In this document: positions 1 through 38,526 of the stretch, one piece after another
How the letters are laid out: the number at the start of each line of letters is the position of its first letter
Position numbering within the stretch: position 1 is the stretch's first letter
Virus record (IMG/VR): IMGVR_UViG_3300044274_000281
Reading direction: 5' to 3' (one strand)
DNA from: a virus
DNA: 38,526 nucleotides
Notes under the pieces: generated by a model
What the model was told of the DNA's origin: nothing
The model's input: the letters and a program-made list of their open reading frames with translations, nothing else
Databases searched by the model: none
Made by a program: the position numbers and the translations under genes

Positions 1-45
1 TGCCTTACAAGCAGGGGGTCACTGGTTCGAATCCAGTATTACCCA
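1..45 (+). tRNA. 3' portion of tRNA-Val (anticodon TAC); the window starts inside the gene
   Basis: Anticodon loop CTTACAA (4-10), anticodon-stem 3' strand GCAGG, 5-nt variable loop, T arm ACTGG-TTCGAAT-CCAGT (21-37), acceptor 3' strand ATTACCC plus discriminator A (38-45). The 5' half would lie left of the window. Confidence 0.8.
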
Positions 46-47
46 CA
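1..47. repeat. attL core (direct repeat with 38480-38526)
   Basis: tgccttacaagcagggggtcactggttcgaatccagtattacccaca is identical at both ends. The true repeat length may be longer because the window truncates it. Confidence 0.9.
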
Positions 48-296: not shown

Positions 297-1520
297 ATGA
301 ATGCGAAGATTAAGCTGTATAAAAACGATGGTAAAAATAGAAACGGAGAGTTTCCAATAAAGTTGATCATTACCCATAAAGGTGTTCCAAAAAGAGAAAC
401 AATAGGACACTCACTGGAAGAAGACTGGGATTTAACAACTGAGCTTCCCAATATTAATCATCCTGATTATGATGAGTTGTATGAATCCATTTTGATAATG
501 CGTCAGAGATCAAGGAAGAATGCATTCAAAAAAATGACCGATAAAAAGTTAGCACTTGAATTTCTTAAAAACGAAGATCAGGACGTTTCTGAAACAGATT
601 TCTATAAGTTTATTGATGAACTAATTCAAAGGTTACGAAATAATAACAAAGACGGTTTGGCAGAATCTTATGATACAGCCAAACGACAATTGCAATATTT
701 TATACCTGAACTTGCAATAGAAAATATCAATAAGCCACTGATTGAGAAGTTCAAAGTATATAAAAAAAATGAAGGGATCGAAAATTCCTCATTAAGTGTG
801 TATTTAAGAAGCTTGAGAGCAATCTATAATAAAGCTATAGATTTTTATGGTATAACGGACAAACAACCATTTAAAGGTGCTTTCAAGAATATCCCAGTTA
901 GAAAAAGGAGAAAGAAAAACAGATGGTTAGATAAAGAGCAATTAATAAAGCTCGCAACAGGAGAACTTGAAAAAGAGAAAGAAATTATCTCCAGAGACCT
1001 CACTATGTTACAGTTCTATTTAGGCGGTGCTGACTTGATGGATGTTTATTATCTGAATAAAAATATGTTTTTTGACGACAGAGTTATGTTACAACGTAAG
1101 AAACTTGGAGAAAAAGGATATGAATTTGATGTAAAAGTATTCCCAGAAGCAAAAAAAATAATTGACAAATACTCAGATCCAAACCGATTGGATATTTTTC
1201 CATTTAAAAAAGAGCATAAAAGTTATACGTCATTTCGAAGAAATCATTTAAAACGGTTAAAGGTGATACAAGAAAAATTAGATATTCAACTGTTACCATT
1301 ACAGGATGGACTTACTACTAAAGTTATTCGGCATTCTTTTGCTACAATTGGTAAATTTCTGCATATCGACGAAGACATAATGCGTGAGATAATGGGACAT
1401 GAAAGAGATGATATCGATACTATTTACAAAGATAAATATCCAGAAGAAGAGCGTGATGAGGCACATTTAAAAATTATATCCTTAAAAAACGAAGATCATT
1501 CTTCTTCAAACATTTCATAA
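297..1520 (+). CDS. int: Tyrosine recombinase / phage integrase
   Basis: 407 aa. SAM-like N-domain signature (LSVYLRSLRAIYNKA). Catalytic-domain motifs VIRHSFAT (HxxR) and MGHERDDIDTIYKD (H...Y). Adjacent to attL. Confidence 0.9.
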   Translation: MNAKIKLYKNDGKNRNGEFPIKLIITHKGVPKRETIGHSLEEDWDLTTELPNINHPDYDELYESILIMRQRSRKNAFKKMTDKKLALEFLKNEDQDVSETDFYKFIDELIQRLRNNNKDGLAESYDTAKRQLQYFIPELAIENINKPLIEKFKVYKKNEGIENSSLSVYLRSLRAIYNKAIDFYGITDKQPFKGAFKNIPVRKRRKKNRWLDKEQLIKLATGELEKEKEIISRDLTMLQFYLGGADLMDVYYLNKNMFFDDRVMLQRKKLGEKGYEFDVKVFPEAKKIIDKYSDPNRLDIFPFKKEHKSYTSFRRNHLKRLKVIQEKLDIQLLPLQDGLTTKVIRHSFATIGKFLHIDEDIMREIMGHERDDIDTIYKDKYPEEERDEAHLKIISLKNEDHSSSNIS

Positions 1521-3749: not shown

Positions 3750-4544
3750 TTACATTACCCAATTGGCAATGCTTTTTGGTTTATAATTATTTTCAATTGC
3801 TTCTTTTACTTTTGCGATCGCAAATCCATCGCGAAACGTGTGACCAATTTTATTTTCAACTTCAACGTATCTGTCAAGTAATTCAGGATTGGCAATACCA
3901 GCTGTAACAAGTGCATCAAACGGACTGAATATGCAAAAGCAACATGATAGTCTAGGCATACCTAAATCATAGGCGAAGTGGTAAGGAATATCATTTGATT
4001 TTATACAGTCCCAGACTTCTTTAGTTGTCCAGTTCAAAATCGGATTGAACTCATACACTTTGCGCGTTTGGATAGTTAATCGTTGAATCAAAGAAATTCT
4101 TTTCTTTTTTGCTCGTTGTGGACTCTCTTCTTTACGAAATCCGAAAACACTCAATACTTCTTTTGCTTTGATTTTGTTGGATATTCTACGAATTACTTTG
4201 TCTCCTGGCGCGCGCTTGAAATCGCTAGTACAATATCGTTGATTTCTACTCGGCCACTTTTTTCTACGCTCCACATATTCAAGTAAATTCTCTTCGTAAC
4301 CGTTTTGGTCAACTCTTTTTTCGACTTCAACAAATAGACCGTATTTGGCGGCTTGTTTTACAACCAATTCTTTAGTGCCAGTCCATTCCATTTCTCCCAA
4401 ATCTTGATGGGATACAATGATTTTACTTTTAGGGAAATTTTGATTTTCCGCTTCCATGACAATCTCATGTAATGCACATACACTATCCTTTCCGCCAGAT
4501 GAATTGACAACTATTAAATCATATTTGCGTAAATCAATATTCAC
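3750..4544 (-). CDS. PAPS-reductase-family PP-loop ATP pyrophosphatase (DndC/SspD/CysH-like fold)
   Basis: 264 aa. VVNSSGGKDSVCALH (SGGKDS PP-loop), RYCTSDFKRAP, GFRKEESPQR, and C-terminal Cys cluster PRLSCCFCIFS. Confidence 0.8.
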   Translation of the reverse strand: MNIDLRKYDLIVVNSSGGKDSVCALHEIVMEAENQNFPKSKIIVSHQDLGEMEWTGTKELVVKQAAKYGLFVEVEKRVDQNGYEENLLEYVERRKKWPSRNQRYCTSDFKRAPGDKVIRRISNKIKAKEVLSVFGFRKEESPQRAKKKRISLIQRLTIQTRKVYEFNPILNWTTKEVWDCIKSNDIPYHFAYDLGMPRLSCCFCIFSPFDALVTAGIANPELLDRYVEVENKIGHTFRDGFAIAKVKEAIENNYKPKSIANWVM

Positions 4545-7127: not shown

Positions 7128-8865
7128 GTTGAATTGTATTTTTTTCTACTTCTAAAATGTTGATTAATGCTCTGGCCAGTGTACCTTTTTTCTTGTGGTG
7201 TTTCTTTTCCAAACTTTCTACATAGCCTGTTAATTCTTCAAATCTGCATCTGCCTTTCAAATACTTACGTGCGCGTAAAGTAATTTTATGAGTCAGTTCT
7301 CTTTGCTTCTTTTTTTGGAGTGAATCTTTGTTTTTATCAGCTTCGTTCTTTAGATAATTTTCATGCTTTTTGAAGTGTTTTTTCGTATATCCAAAGCCAC
7401 CTTCGTAGGAATTGGTTCGTGTGAGATTGAAATATTCTCTTGGGTATAGCAGTTTATAATCAGGATATCTGGAACAGTAGCTTATTACCCATTTAAGGCG
7501 CCAGCGAAACTCTTCAAGTTTTTCTAGCTGATATTGTTTGGAATAAATACCAGATGTTTTGCTGAAAAAATAGTTATAAAAAAAGTATTTTATTGTGTTG
7601 GTCCATTCACCTTGGTATACTTTTTTGTCTTTAAATATTCGGGCGGTGGTGCATATAAAGTCATAGATAATTATTCGCCTAAACTGCTCTTTATCAATAG
7701 TTCCATACTGTGCTTCCCAAATCAAGTCTCGCATTGGTAAAGGTCTGTAGTTATTATGTATTCCTGCGGCTAGTTCATTAGCCAATTCATACACACTTTT
7801 ATTGTATAGCACACGAAATGACTCTCTTATCGGGAAAATTTCTTTTCTTTTTTTTGCCGCAGCTTTTTTTTCTTTTGGCGCAGCCGCCGCAACTTGCTTC
7901 CCTGTGTTCCTATAGAATTCTGATCCGTTAGGATCACTTATCGCAGAATTGGAAACCTGTGGATAGAGAACCGACTGAACCTTTTTTAAAGCTTCCAATT
8001 CTTCCTTATCTATGGCATCTGCTTTAGCAGTAGCCTTATTATTTTTATGTTGAACTTGGTTACTATAGGAACTGTTGTTATATCCGTATTTTGCTGTGAA
8101 ATCCCCTGTATCGGTATATTTTTCGTAAGGTTTGTATCCGTCAGATATGCGAAGAACCAAAGGGTTTAGCTTTGCCATTGGAGCGTAATCATAGCCTCGG
8201 AACCTGTATTCTTCAATCACTCCACAGTCCAATAATCGCGCTATGTGTCTATGAATTGTATCTTTATCTAGATCTAACTTTGGGACCTCAGTACTAGTGC
8301 CCAGATCCAAGTTTACATTTAACAATGATTTTGCACTTAGTGGAAATTCATATCCTTCATCCAGACGCAATTGGGTTGATTCATTTGCTTGTAAGCACCA
8401 TAGGTTTCTTCCCTTTAATTTATAGGCGCAATGACTGAGAATAGCTGCAAATATTTGTTTACTGGCTTGCTTTACTTTATGATGTTTCTTCTTTCTGATT
8501 TTAACGCGATTGTCGGCATTAAACTCATTTACATGGGCGTTGTATAGTTTTACAGGAATAGTGCAACGTCCGTATGTTTCTCGAAGTCTACGATCGTATT
8601 TGTCCTTCATTTTAAAGATATCCTGCTCCTGGACAACCTTCATCTGGACCATTTTGTCAATCAAACTGTTGTGGTTGTCTACATCGTTGTTTAATTTTAC
8701 CAGCGTAGTATTGTTATACTCGTGTACAAATAATGAGTAATTATCAAGTGACTGCTTAAAGTCTTCTGATGTAATTACTGGATAAGTAAGGCTCGGCGGT
8801 TGTGCACTATCATAGATAGCTGATACCGCCGAAACACCTTGCTTCCTGTGCCTTGACTGTAACAT
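7105..8865 (-). CDS. Large hypothetical protein; possible winged-helix DNA-binding / replication-initiation protein
   Basis: ATG at 8865 (MLQSRHRKQG...); the track start at 8889 is GTG inside a hairpin. wHTH-like DTIHRHIARLLDCGVIEEY, a basic Ala/Lys linker, and no Walker A motif. Function is inferred from position and size only. Confidence 0.7.
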   Translation of the reverse strand: MLQSRHRKQGVSAVSAIYDSAQPPSLTYPVITSEDFKQSLDNYSLFVHEYNNTTLVKLNNDVDNHNSLIDKMVQMKVVQEQDIFKMKDKYDRRLRETYGRCTIPVKLYNAHVNEFNADNRVKIRKKKHHKVKQASKQIFAAILSHCAYKLKGRNLWCLQANESTQLRLDEGYEFPLSAKSLLNVNLDLGTSTEVPKLDLDKDTIHRHIARLLDCGVIEEYRFRGYDYAPMAKLNPLVLRISDGYKPYEKYTDTGDFTAKYGYNNSSYSNQVQHKNNKATAKADAIDKEELEALKKVQSVLYPQVSNSAISDPNGSEFYRNTGKQVAAAAPKEKKAAAKKRKEIFPIRESFRVLYNKSVYELANELAAGIHNNYRPLPMRDLIWEAQYGTIDKEQFRRIIIYDFICTTARIFKDKKVYQGEWTNTIKYFFYNYFFSKTSGIYSKQYQLEKLEEFRWRLKWVISYCSRYPDYKLLYPREYFNLTRTNSYEGGFGYTKKHFKKHENYLKNEADKNKDSLQKKKQRELTHKITLRARKYLKGRCRFEELTGYVESLEKKHHKKKGTLARALINILEVEKNTIQHAQNQQL

Positions 8866-8880
8866 ATTATGTTTATTTAT

Positions 8881-8923
8881 GAAACTCACTGCTAGTCGCC
8901 AAACTATATAGGCAGTGGGTTTC
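8881..8923. other. 12-bp stem hairpin between the tRNA-Met gene and the 594-aa gene
   Basis: GAAACTCACTGC - 19 nt - GCAGTGGGTTTC (one G-U). The T-run follows only on the plus strand. Confidence 0.5.
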
Positions 8924-8936
8924 TTTTATTACTTTG

Positions 8937-9009
8937 TAGCGGGGACAGGACTCGAACCTGTAACCTCTGGGTTATGAGCCCAGCGAGCTACCATTTGCTC
9001 TACCCCGCG
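8937..9009 (-). tRNA. tRNA-Met (anticodon CAT) with initiator-type features
   Basis: 73-nt cloverleaf: CGCGGGG-TA-GAGC-AAATGGTA-GCTC-G-CTGGG-CTCATAA-CCCAG-AGGTT-ACAGG-TTCGAGT-CCTGT-CCCCGCT-A. It has a C1/U72 mismatch, A11:U24, and three G:C pairs closing the anticodon stem. Confidence 0.9.
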
Positions 9010-9064
9010 TGAGGTTTTAACTAACAACAATAAAATTTAGCCTTTCAAATAAACTACCTCCTGA

Positions 9065-9238
9065 TTATTTTTTAGAAACTCTTAGTTGTCCAATCCAATC
9101 TTCAAATCCATCTTTCGGGTGTTTTTCTACCTCCTTTGCCAAATACTTATCATGTAAGGTTATGGCAATGATTGTAGTTAGGATTCCAACGGCAAAGCCG
9201 CCAAAAGCCGCAATAATTGTTAAATAATTTACTTCCAT
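9065..9238 (-). CDS. 57-aa single-pass membrane protein (below ORF-track cutoff)
   Basis: MEVNYLTIIAAFGGFAVGILTTIIAITLHDKYLAKEVEKHPKDGFEDWIGQLRVSKK. The ATG lies 7 nt after the upstream stop. Confidence 0.45.
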   Translation of the reverse strand: MEVNYLTIIAAFGGFAVGILTTIIAITLHDKYLAKEVEKHPKDGFEDWIGQLRVSKK

Positions 9239-9245
9239 CATTTCT

Positions 9246-9935
9246 TTAATTATGATGATGGTTTGTTATTTCAGGATCATACGCTTCTTTTCCCCAAGCT
9301 GTCACGATCAAATATCCTCCTTTCACTTTCTTGAATACTATGGGATCATCCACAAGAATGTGATTGTCTTTGATCTCATCGGGATCGTGCTTCATCATCT
9401 CTGCAGGAGCTGCAATCATGAATTCCTCCATTCTCATCATTGTAGCGAGTCCATCCATTTGTTCTCTGAGCCTTGATCCAGAAAATGGATTAAATATTGA
9501 AGGTACTGATCCTGCAGAAAGCAAGGATGATTCCATACTTAAAAAAAGATCATCTGAATTCTTACGGCTTAGATTTCTCTTGTATAATTTTTTAAACGTT
9601 TGTATATCTTCCAAGTTTTTATCTGGAATGTCTCCTAAATAGCGGCGCGTGTTACCAAATAATAATCCGTATTTTTCACAGACTCTTTTAATACCTTCTT
9701 CCGTGATGAATCTGTAAGGCATTCCAATTTTGATATACTCTAAGGCAGAAGTGACCGACTTGTAGTCTTCTACTGGAACTGCATTAATAAATCCAAATTC
9801 CTTTACCTTTTCCGATTTAGCCTGTAGACTTTCCAATTCAGACTCGGTCATTGCGCTTGCTCTGTTTGTGACTTGCTGAGATTCTTTGTAGAAATCATTC
9901 AAGATCACTTCTGCTGTAATAGCTTCAGTACTCAT
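9246..9935 (-). CDS. Hypothetical protein
   Basis: 229-aa ORF in the leftward block. No recognised motif. Confidence 0.75.
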   Translation of the reverse strand: MSTEAITAEVILNDFYKESQQVTNRASAMTESELESLQAKSEKVKEFGFINAVPVEDYKSVTSALEYIKIGMPYRFITEEGIKRVCEKYGLLFGNTRRYLGDIPDKNLEDIQTFKKLYKRNLSRKNSDDLFLSMESSLLSAGSVPSIFNPFSGSRLREQMDGLATMMRMEEFMIAAPAEMMKHDPDEIKDNHILVDDPIVFKKVKGGYLIVTAWGKEAYDPEITNHHHN

Positions 9936-9955
9936 AAAAAATTGTTTTTAAAATT

Positions 9956-10205
9956 TGCCAGCAGTCAGGAATCGAACCTGCAACAGTCTAACATTTAAGC
10001 TATCATTTTTACGTTTCAAGCACCTGTTTCCGAAAACTCGTTGAGTTTCCCTGCTATGTGTGACCAAGTGGAGTTCCTTTCAATCTCCCGCTAAAGTCTT
10101 GCAAGTTATTAACCGAGTGGCATGCATTCTCGTAGACACAACAGTCTTGACTGCGAAATGTTTGTCAAACCCTGTTTTCCGTGTGCCGTTTCCTCGCGTG
10201 TAATA
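9956..10205 (-). ncRNA. Candidate structured RNA with a tRNA-like T arm at its 3' end (not a canonical tRNA)
   Basis: ORF-free, G+C-elevated gap. The minus strand ends ...GCAGG-TTCGATT-CCTGA-CTGCTGG-CA, containing GGTTCGATTCC. It also has an internal duplication: CGGAAA(A)CAGG..TTGA(C)AAAC..AGACTGTTG occurs twice. Confidence 0.35.
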
Positions 10206-10218
10206 CTATAAAAGCCTT

Positions 10219-10470
10219 TTATTTTTTAGGCGCATTGTAGTCGCACCCTTTTTCATCAGATGTTACTTCCTGTTGACTTATTTTGACTTCACCAAATGAT
10301 AAACGCCCTTCGTCAAACCATTGTGCTTCTGGGTACTTCTTGGTGTCATCACAATCGGGTTTTACCAAATATTGATCACATCCAGTTAAGTATTCGGCAT
10401 GCCCAACAATTACTCCACTAAATTGTGTAATCTTGTCTGTGGCAGTTCTTCCTAAATTTTGATTTTTCAT
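10219..10470 (-). CDS. Hypothetical protein
   Basis: 83-aa ORF. Confidence 0.7.
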   Translation of the reverse strand: MKNQNLGRTATDKITQFSGVIVGHAEYLTGCDQYLVKPDCDDTKKYPEAQWFDEGRLSFGEVKISQQEVTSDEKGCDYNAPKK

Positions 10471-10482
10471 AATTTCACGGCT

Positions 10483-10602
10483 TTAATGCTTTAGTCCGCA
10501 TTGATTACAGTACGGATAACCATCTTTGTTATACTTCACTTTGGTTTCAATCTCGCATTCAAAACAGTAAAGTCTTGGTGGTATATATGATTCTGATTCC
10601 AT
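10483..10602 (-). CDS. 39-aa zinc-ribbon micro-protein (below ORF-track cutoff)
   Basis: MESESYIPPRLYCFECEIETKVKYNKDGYPYCNQCGLKH (CxxC-N16-CxxC). Starts 2 nt after the upstream stop. Confidence 0.45.
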   Translation of the reverse strand: MESESYIPPRLYCFECEIETKVKYNKDGYPYCNQCGLKH

Positions 10603-10604
10603 AT

Positions 10605-10817
10605 TTAAACAGCGACTAATTCTGGATCATTAACTTCAATTTCATTTGCTCTCACTGTATCTAGTTTATTGTTGAGACGTATGAGCGTGTTCTGTAAGTG
10701 CTTTCGATTTTCAATTTTCTGATCACCTTTGATTGAATTGTCAGAATCAAGATTGATGATTGATTGCTGAATATTGTCAATGTCTTGCTGAAGCTGTTGT
10801 ATTTCAGGATTTTCCAT
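10605..10817 (-). CDS. Hypothetical coiled-coil protein
   Basis: 70-aa ORF, heptad-like and Q/N/D-rich. Confidence 0.65.
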   Translation of the reverse strand: MENPEIQQLQQDIDNIQQSIINLDSDNSIKGDQKIENRKHLQNTLIRLNNKLDTVRANEIEVNDPELVAV

Positions 10818-10832
10818 ACTTAGACAATTTGG

Positions 10833-10896
10833 TTAGGTTAAATGAGTGCGGCGTTGCTTCCGCACTCACTACGCTTAAAAATATTATTTAACCTAA
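10833..10896. promoter_or_regulatory. Nested inverted repeats upstream of the 10817 gene
   Basis: Outer 11-bp IR TTAGGTTAAAT (10833-10843) / ATTTAACCTAA (10886-10896). It encloses a 9-bp G+C-rich stem TGAGTGCGG (10843-10851) / CCGCACTCA (10860-10868). Confidence 0.4.
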
Positions 10897-11142
10897 AAAT
10901 TATATTATGCCTACTCTGATCAGTTTTCGGCTTCCCTGTTATCTTTAAAATGCTCGTCTTTCCGAGCCGTCAGACTCAATTCATCGTTTGTCTTTTGAAT
11001 TCCCGTCTGTCTTGTCATTTCACTATTCTTTCCAAGATGTCATCGGTTAGGTTGACCGCCACCGAAAGGTCAAGACGTAATCAATTGAGTCGCTTCTTAC
11101 ATATTGAATGGGTTACGTTCATGCAATTGCTATATTTTAAAA

Positions 11143-11361
11143 TCATCGCTTTACTTGATTTCGTTTCAAATTCCTATTGATAATACTGTTTACTGTGAGT
11201 TCGGAAATTCCAAAGTGTTTACCAACTACCCAAAGTCGATTGTCTTCTTGGGTGTTGAAATACTCCATCACGTCAGCGTCTGTGTATGTAACTTTATCAT
11301 GTTTCATTGCTTGACTATTTTCCAGTTTTTTGCATAGTTTTTTACATATTCTTGTAAACAT
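11143..11361 (-). CDS. Small HTH DNA-binding protein
   Basis: HTH-like segment WVVGKHFGISELTVNSIINRN. ATG at 11361, or alternatively 11307 (MKHDKV...). The track start at 11379 is TTG. Confidence 0.55.
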   Translation of the reverse strand: MFTRICKKLCKKLENSQAMKHDKVTYTDADVMEYFNTQEDNRLWVVGKHFGISELTVNSIINRNLKRNQVKR

Positions 11362-11431
11362 TTTGCCATGGTAGCACAATGTATTTCTTTAATAGCTGTT
11401 CCCTTTTTTCGTTGTAATACTATCTTTGGCA

Positions 11432-12194: not shown

Positions 12195-12211
12195 CAAACA
12201 TAATACATTTG
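12195..12211. promoter_or_regulatory. Back-to-back divergent -7 boxes of the lysis/lysogeny switch
   Basis: caaacata (12195-12202) reads TATGTTTG on the minus strand. TACATTTG lies at 12204-12211 on the plus strand. Both match TAnnTTTG. Confidence 0.5.
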
Positions 12212-38479: not shown

Positions 38480-38526
38480 TGCCTTACAAGCAGGGGGTCA
38501 CTGGTTCGAATCCAGTATTACCCACA
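38480..38526. repeat. attR core = displaced 3' fragment of tRNA-Val
   Basis: Identical to 1-47. It is preceded by AT-rich phage DNA (...attataatttaa) that cannot form the tRNA 5' half; the anticodon-stem 5' strand would be AATGC instead of CCTGC. Confidence 0.9.

Follow-up and report, generated by a model that had tools for sequence, protein, structure and literature searches.

Predicted tRNA pseudogenes have been reported in T4-like phage genomes (PMC1524935), and tRNA fragments from integrating elements are common and widespread in prokaryotes (PMC9897764). The window analyzed here, a 38.5-kb stretch of viral DNA, harbored a 101-nt element at 10057-9957 (minus strand) that, judged from its sequence, is probably a pseudo-tRNA, i.e., a decayed former phage tRNA gene unable to decode. 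The element was compared with three described systems: (i) it resembled the "Pseudo" calls made by tRNAscan-SE in T4-like phages (PMC1524935) in being apparently tRNA-derived, close to an intact phage tRNA, recognizable in some arms and non-decoding, but it was detected by neither ARAGORN nor the Rfam tRNA model, and its middle was expanded to 52 nt and not merely mutated; (ii) it shared with the partial tRNA genes of integrating elements (PMC9897764) the retention of a tRNA 3' part within or close to a mobile element, but it contained both tRNA halves and was accompanied by neither an integrase nor a repeat partner; and (iii) it had in common with the tRNA-like domain of tmRNA an acceptor stem plus T-arm around a non-tRNA insert, but it lacked G3·U70, pseudoknots, and a credible tag frame, and the insert was only 52 nt. 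A pseudo-tRNA in a phage is an ordinary occurrence, and the present element would be another case of a known kind.

Exact 47-bp direct repeats were found at both ends of the window (1-47 and 38480-38526), and thus the window was recognized as one complete Bacteroidota-type prophage bounded by these att sites. Each att repeat covered the 3' portion of a tRNA, anticodon stem through 3' end, and the left one was adjoined by an integrase with Arm-DNA-bind_5 and Phage_int_SAM_5 domains, an architecture characteristic of integrases from Bacteroidota. The gap containing the element (9936-10218, minus strand) was located in the leftward early operon, within a run of tightly packed leftward genes. Its boundaries had been placed correctly in the preliminary description, between an 83-aa gene and a 229-aa gene (Table 1), and it was indeed free of ORFs of at least 60 aa. 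Two short ORFs overlapped the gap, one of 39 aa (TTG start, minus strand) and one of 47 aa (GTG start, plus strand); neither these two nor an 85-codon frame running through one TGA had a Pfam or PHROG match, and a search of the 39-aa ORF against 1.8 billion protein representatives gave no small-protein relative and only one repetitive 2958-aa protein. A small-protein gene in the gap was rejected because of this lack of family matches and small-protein homologues.

The reported rise in G+C was real but modest (0.41 versus a window mean of 0.34 with sd 0.042; top 3.5% of 283-nt windows), and the argument that it marked a structured RNA failed statistically, no fold being better than those of shuffles: the folding energy of the whole gap corresponded to z = +1.54, and every 110-nt minus-strand window had z > -0.8. 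With fold z-scores at shuffle level, the gap was not supported as a thermodynamically structured RNA. The Bacteroidota -7 box (TAnnTTTG) was absent on either strand across 8282-11421, and the nearest minus-strand box was at 12195-12202; the gap is thus probably transcribed within the early operon, presumably as a co-transcript from a promoter near 12200. Sigma-70-like sites and terminators in the gap were at or below shuffle level, and the gap was rejected as a promoter or terminator region on this ground and that of the missing -7 box. A second ORF-poor gap in this operon contained a marginal match to the Rfam DUF805b RNA motif at 10908-10940 (minus strand; 37.3 bits versus a threshold of 35.6).

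Table 1. Layout of the putative pseudo-tRNA, the gap around it, and the neighboring genes in the window
Feature	Coordinates	Strand	Basis or remark
83-aa gene, phrog_16275, function unknown	10219..10470	-	Upstream of gap
Upstream part of gap, 161 nt, no identified feature	10058..10218	-	No Rfam, tRNA-profile, promoter-box, or protein-family match
Putative pseudo-tRNA, 101 nt	9957..10057	-	Layout from sequence; likeness to L195 tRNA; tRNA profile match
Acceptor 5' strand ATAGCAG	10051..10057	-	Read from sequence; L195 tRNA counterpart CCAGCAG
Two linker bases	10049-10050	-	Between acceptor 5' strand and D-like hairpin
D-arm remnant AAACTC-AAC-GAGTTT, 6-bp stem, 3-nt loop, without G18 G19	10034..10048	-	ACTC/GAGT stem as in L195 tRNA and many tRNA-Gly(UCC) genes
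52-nt middle ending in AGACTGTT	9982..10033	-	Sits where N26, anticodon arm, and variable loop (~22 nt) belong
T-arm GCAGG-TTCGATT-CCTGA, consensus T-loop	9965..9981	-	4 Watson-Crick bp plus closing G·A; one base off L195 T-arm
Acceptor 3' strand CTGCTGG	9958-9964	-	Identical to L195 tRNA 3' end
Discriminator C	9957	-	Identical to L195; no encoded CCA
229-aa gene, no named family	9246..9935	-	Start 21 nt past pseudo-tRNA
Intact tRNA-Met(CAT)	8936..9009	-	ARAGORN; Rfam 65.2 bits; same operon, ~950 nt downstream of relic

The 3' end of the element was its most tRNA-like part. The exact T-loop 11-mer GGTTCGATTCC, already pointed out in the preliminary description, was present on the minus strand at 9978-9968 and was followed by CTGA and then by CTGCTGG-C; its chance expectation in the window was 0.007, and the only near-copies elsewhere were the two att tRNA fragments. 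The tRNA T-arm pattern (GTTCRANNC loop, 5-bp stem) was recognized in GCAGG-TTCGATT-CCTGA with four Watson-Crick pairs plus the G·A. The 5' partner ATAGCAG (10057-10051) did pair with CTGCTGG at six of the seven positions as had been claimed (five Watson-Crick pairs, 3:70 being A-U, together with 2:71 U·G, beside a terminal 1:72 A·G), but the pairing was not significant in itself, a 6/7 partner being present in 99% of dinucleotide shuffles. No canonical D or anticodon arm had been built in the preliminary description, and the 6-bp hairpin AAACTC-AAC-GAGTTT, located two bases past the partner, had been missed there; a 6/7 acceptor partner together with a 6-bp Watson-Crick hairpin within 1-3 nt occurred in 2.35% of shuffles. 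Set against a regular D-arm (7-11-nt loop with G18 G19), the stem sequence was kept and the loop was shortened to AAC. The terminal AGACTGTT of the middle matched the anticodon-stem end and variable loop of real tRNAs, while the rest of this region folded weakly: no anticodon arm (5-bp stem, 7-nt loop, U33, R37) could be drawn in the 52 nt, and the best closing stem, TCGGA/TTAGA, had four of five pairs with a central G·A and enclosed 37 nt. The acceptor and the D hairpin were formed in the MFE fold of the element, and the T-arm was not.

The sequence comparison was extended to real tRNAs by a public-contig search with the pattern AGACTGTTGNNGGTTCGANTCC, aimed at relatives of the gap. It returned 27 contigs from IMG/VR and over 120 from metagenomes, and most matches were called tRNA genes, chiefly tRNA-Gly(UCC), in which AGA closed the anticodon stem, CTGTT constituted the variable loop, and the remainder belonged to the T-arm; likewise, AGACTGTTG, which directly preceded the T-arm of the element, matched the end of the anticodon stem together with the variable loop in many real tRNAs. 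Since nearly all matches to AGACTGTTGNNGGTTCGANTCC were ordinary tRNAs, the last ~45 nt of the gap were read as the 3' half of a normal tRNA. Another pattern, composed of the T-loop and the acceptor strand, identified a bona fide phage tRNA at 820-891 (minus strand) of IMG/VR UViG_3300014201_000017 (designated L195), which scored 48.2 bits with Rfam and was called tRNA-Cys(GCA) by ARAGORN. From the T-stem to the discriminator, the L195 tRNA and the element were identical at 25 of 26 nt. Their 5' ends (CCAGCAG-TA-ACTC-AATGGCA-GAGT in L195 and ATAGCAG-GG-AAACTC-AAC-GAGTTT in the window) had in common the AGCAG acceptor core, two bases, and the ACTC/GAGT D-stem, while the 7-nt D-loop, the 5-bp anticodon stem with its 7-nt loop, and the 4-nt variable loop were found in L195 and not in the window copy. 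This 5' match indicated that the acceptor 5' strand and the D-stem are also retained in the window at tRNA-like two-base spacing, although only 3 nt of D-loop are left. A tRNA profile HMM trained on 350 tRNAs from phages and metagenomes was also applied to the entire window with nhmmer; its matches were, in order, tRNA-Met, the two att copies, and 9988-9966 (E=0.013), all remaining listed matches having E>1.

Three candidates had been named in the preliminary description, namely a degenerate tRNA, a relic att site, and a tRNA-like sRNA; the first is favored because of the 25/26 identity of the 3' end to a real phage tRNA, the matching acceptor 5' strand, and the D-stem upstream, while the second is disfavored (see below) and the third has gained no positive support. 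A fortuitous likeness within an ordinary spacer between genes is extremely improbable: it would fit the chance-level acceptor partner and repeated words and the lack of a structure signal, but it leaves unexplained the 11-mer, the likeness to a real tRNA 3' end, and a D-stem lying two bases past a complementary acceptor strand. A separate observation concerned the metagenome contigs L082, L116, and L172, in each of which a tRNA 3' half (variable loop, T-arm, and acceptor-like strand) without a recognizable 5' half came right after a normal tRNA gene; this 3' half is another tRNA relic.

The element was examined for a working tRNA or another known RNA. The Rfam run that the preliminary description had proposed for the gap yielded no tRNA, tmRNA, intron, or other minus-strand match at E<=10; the Rfam tRNA model RF00005 (gathering threshold 29 bits) in particular gave none at E<=10 over 9800-10350 or 9950-10075. 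ARAGORN found no tRNA or tmRNA in the gap by default, and at lowered thresholds it gave only implausible intron-bearing calls with their 5' exons inside the conserved 83-aa ORF. One of these, a tRNA-Leu(UAA) with a 282-nt intron (80% threshold), was rejected, since its 5' exon would lie within the conserved ORF and a group I core was lacking; Rfam matched no intron family at E<=10 that could represent a group I intron between the tRNA halves. For tRNA-Sec (RF01852), which requires at least 47 bits, a long variable arm, and a UCA anticodon, the 3' part alone gave 12-17 bits as a truncated match to the T hairpin only. No tmRNA was detected by Rfam or by ARAGORN -m at default and lowered thresholds, and G3·U70 was absent; a mini-tmRNA, considered because a short frame in the insert ended in Ile-Ala-stop, was rejected for lack of G3·U70 and of any tmRNA detection.

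A non-canonical tRNA that still decodes, for example by way of a short intron or an expanded anticodon loop closed by TCGGA/TTAGA, is highly improbable. The insert can be enclosed by a weak stem, and metagenomic tRNA-like sequences with ~50-nt inserts between good anticodon stems do exist: L123 and L175 (metagenome contig NFZD01017411.1) displayed the anticodon stem TCTGG/CCAGA around a ~49-nt insert and were not called by ARAGORN. However, neither bacteria nor their phages are known to possess a system that splices short introns; moreover, the loop lacked the U33-anticodon-R37 context, the D-loop was only 3 nt, the intron mode of ARAGORN gave only the low-threshold calls with 5' exons in the 83-aa ORF, and no group I match was obtained from Rfam.

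A further alternative is a relic att site or recombination scar, in which an integrase module since lost, or else illegitimate recombination, would have left behind the 3' end of a host tRNA. The best-kept part of the element, from the anticodon-stem end to the discriminator (~45 nt), had the usual extent of tRNA-targeting att cores, and the phage's own att core spanned the same part of a tRNA. This origin is nevertheless very unlikely, given four observations: (i) a 5' acceptor strand and a D-stem were present, and these are absent from att cores; (ii) no integrase was adjacent, the neighboring genes not being integrases; (iii) no partner repeat was found elsewhere in the window; and (iv) no tRNA with the same T-arm and acceptor within two mismatches was found in 401 Flavobacteriaceae genomes searched.

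No counterpart of the gap was found in any of the sequence sets searched. A blastn search for homologues of the gap in 50,697 phage records (INPHARED) gave none, no exact 33-mer of the gap was present in IMG/VR, and a blastn comparison of the gap with loci around relatives of the flanking genes (38 for the 83-aa gene and seven for the 229-aa gene) displayed similarity to generic T-arms only. The relatives of the 83-aa gene were distributed in 38 IMG/VR loci, none of which contained gap-like DNA. An IMG/VR search with a pattern combining a truncated D-arm and a distant T-loop gave 10 matches; in seven of them, the matched part was an unrelated hairpin that preceded a called tRNA of ordinary type, the other three had no tRNA call, and none of the 10 resembled the relic. 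The phage closest by the 83-aa gene (L001; 67% identity) had this gene followed by small ORFs, without the gap. The gap, which was also missing from all seven loci of the 229-aa relatives, is not conserved.

The 229-aa protein itself was present in identical form on six other contigs, with further relatives (P0002-P0004) at 38-47% identity; its AF2 model was confident (pLDDT 83, pTM 0.74), and neither a Pfam/PHROG family nor a PDB fold match at E<=0.001 was found for it. Its family comprised at least 181 detectable relatives with the invariant motifs FIT, C..K..L, DP, and WG.E. In the small-ORF region of L001 (594-1459, plus strand), the 8-mer TGTAGTTA occurred six times versus 0.14 expected (six were reached in none of 200 shuffles), each copy just upstream of a small-ORF start. 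This 8-mer may be a conserved intergenic signal of L001; it was not enriched in the window (four versus 1.5 expected).

Genes for tRNAs and tRNA-like genes were found near homologues of both flanking genes in several relatives: L045 carried a four-tRNA array shortly upstream of the 229-aa homologue, L016 and L030 carried tRNA arrays a few hundred bases after the 83-aa homologue, and L025 and L041 carried non-canonical tRNA-like genes beside homologues of the flanking genes. The occurrence of tRNA genes at similar places in relatives lends loose support, short of strict synteny, to a former tRNA cluster at the present locus. The L025 gene (82-171, plus strand; 90 nt) was located directly upstream of the 83-aa (phrog_16275) homologue, scored 42 bits with the Rfam tRNA model, and had good acceptor, D, and T arms, with an anticodon region of 32 nt versus 13 nt expected by the model and no default ARAGORN call. 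The two L041 elements (2081-2196 and 3903-4001, plus strand) had type II-like D-arms and unpaired acceptor halves of their own; the 3' strand CCTGACT of the first was complementary to the 5' strand AGTCAGG of the second, 1.7 kb downstream, and the pair may be a rearranged or split tRNA. The first L041 element was called as a permuted tmRNA by ARAGORN at a lowered threshold.

Another alternative is a functional, non-decoding tRNA-like RNA, whose acceptor/T-arm portion would be recognized by RNase P, RNase Z, or the CCA-adding enzyme, so that the early polycistronic transcript would be cut just upstream of the 229-aa gene or host factors that bind tRNA would be drawn to a decoy. Taken together, this set of roles is unlikely, although several features would suit it: the framework arms were preserved with only the anticodon domain lost, the element ended 21 nt upstream of the next ATG in an operon with no promoter box in the gap, and a similar anticodon-less tRNA-like gene stood beside the same gene family in L025. 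Against it, the gap had no homologue and hence no covariation, its fold energy was no better than random and the T-arm was missing from the MFE fold, and the element displayed the 1:72 mismatch and a D-loop without G18 G19, the bases needed for the tRNA elbow. The more general proposal that anticodon-less tRNA-like genes are a maintained class in Bacteroidota phages, with L025 as a second, independent example beside phrog_16275, is quite unlikely; if it were true, such genes could punctuate early operons for transcript processing or act as decoys that engage host factors binding or cleaving tRNAs.

The preliminary description had further reported an internal duplication in the gap, and this claim did not survive comparison with shuffles: with three gap-tolerant scorings, 118-178 of 400 dinucleotide shuffles equaled the best local alignments of the two halves, and a simpler first test gave 247 of 500 shuffles as good. 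A repeated 9-mer was present in 20% of shuffles, and a chain of collinear shared words was typical of them. Within the upstream 161 nt (Table 1), an interrupted 11-bp hairpin at 10181-10139 (-9 kcal/mol) shared short words with the middle of the pseudo-tRNA at chance level. A second decayed tRNA copy at 10200-10105, suggestive by eye, was significant in no test and was rejected. The 161-nt spacer may be older debris of the same kind as the pseudo-tRNA.

The decayed tRNA gene would most likely have arisen as follows: the phage once had a few tRNA genes clustered at this locus, an arrangement seen in some relatives next to homologues of both flanking genes, and one member of the cluster would have been left to drift. 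Such drift would have kept a mostly paired acceptor stem, the D-stem, the anticodon-stem end with the variable loop, the consensus T-arm, and the discriminator, and it would have brought the D-loop down to 3 nt and replaced the anticodon stem-loop by, or swollen it to, 52 poorly pairing nt. The decay is deduced and not observed. The framework arms (acceptor, D-stem, and T-arm) were kept better than uniform neutral decay predicts, the damage being concentrated in the D-loop and the anticodon region, and this pattern could reflect selection for a non-decoding tRNA-like role.

The pseudo-tRNA would account for most of an odd non-coding gap and would mean that, in addition to tRNA-Met, one or more further tRNA genes were formerly present in this temperate phage. 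Two cautions for annotation follow from the locus: a perfect T-loop plus a pairable acceptor strand does not amount to a tRNA, and short collinear repeats within 283 nt can arise by chance. If tRNA-like genes without an anticodon arm prove to be maintained in several phages, they would merit attention as RNA-processing signals or decoys.
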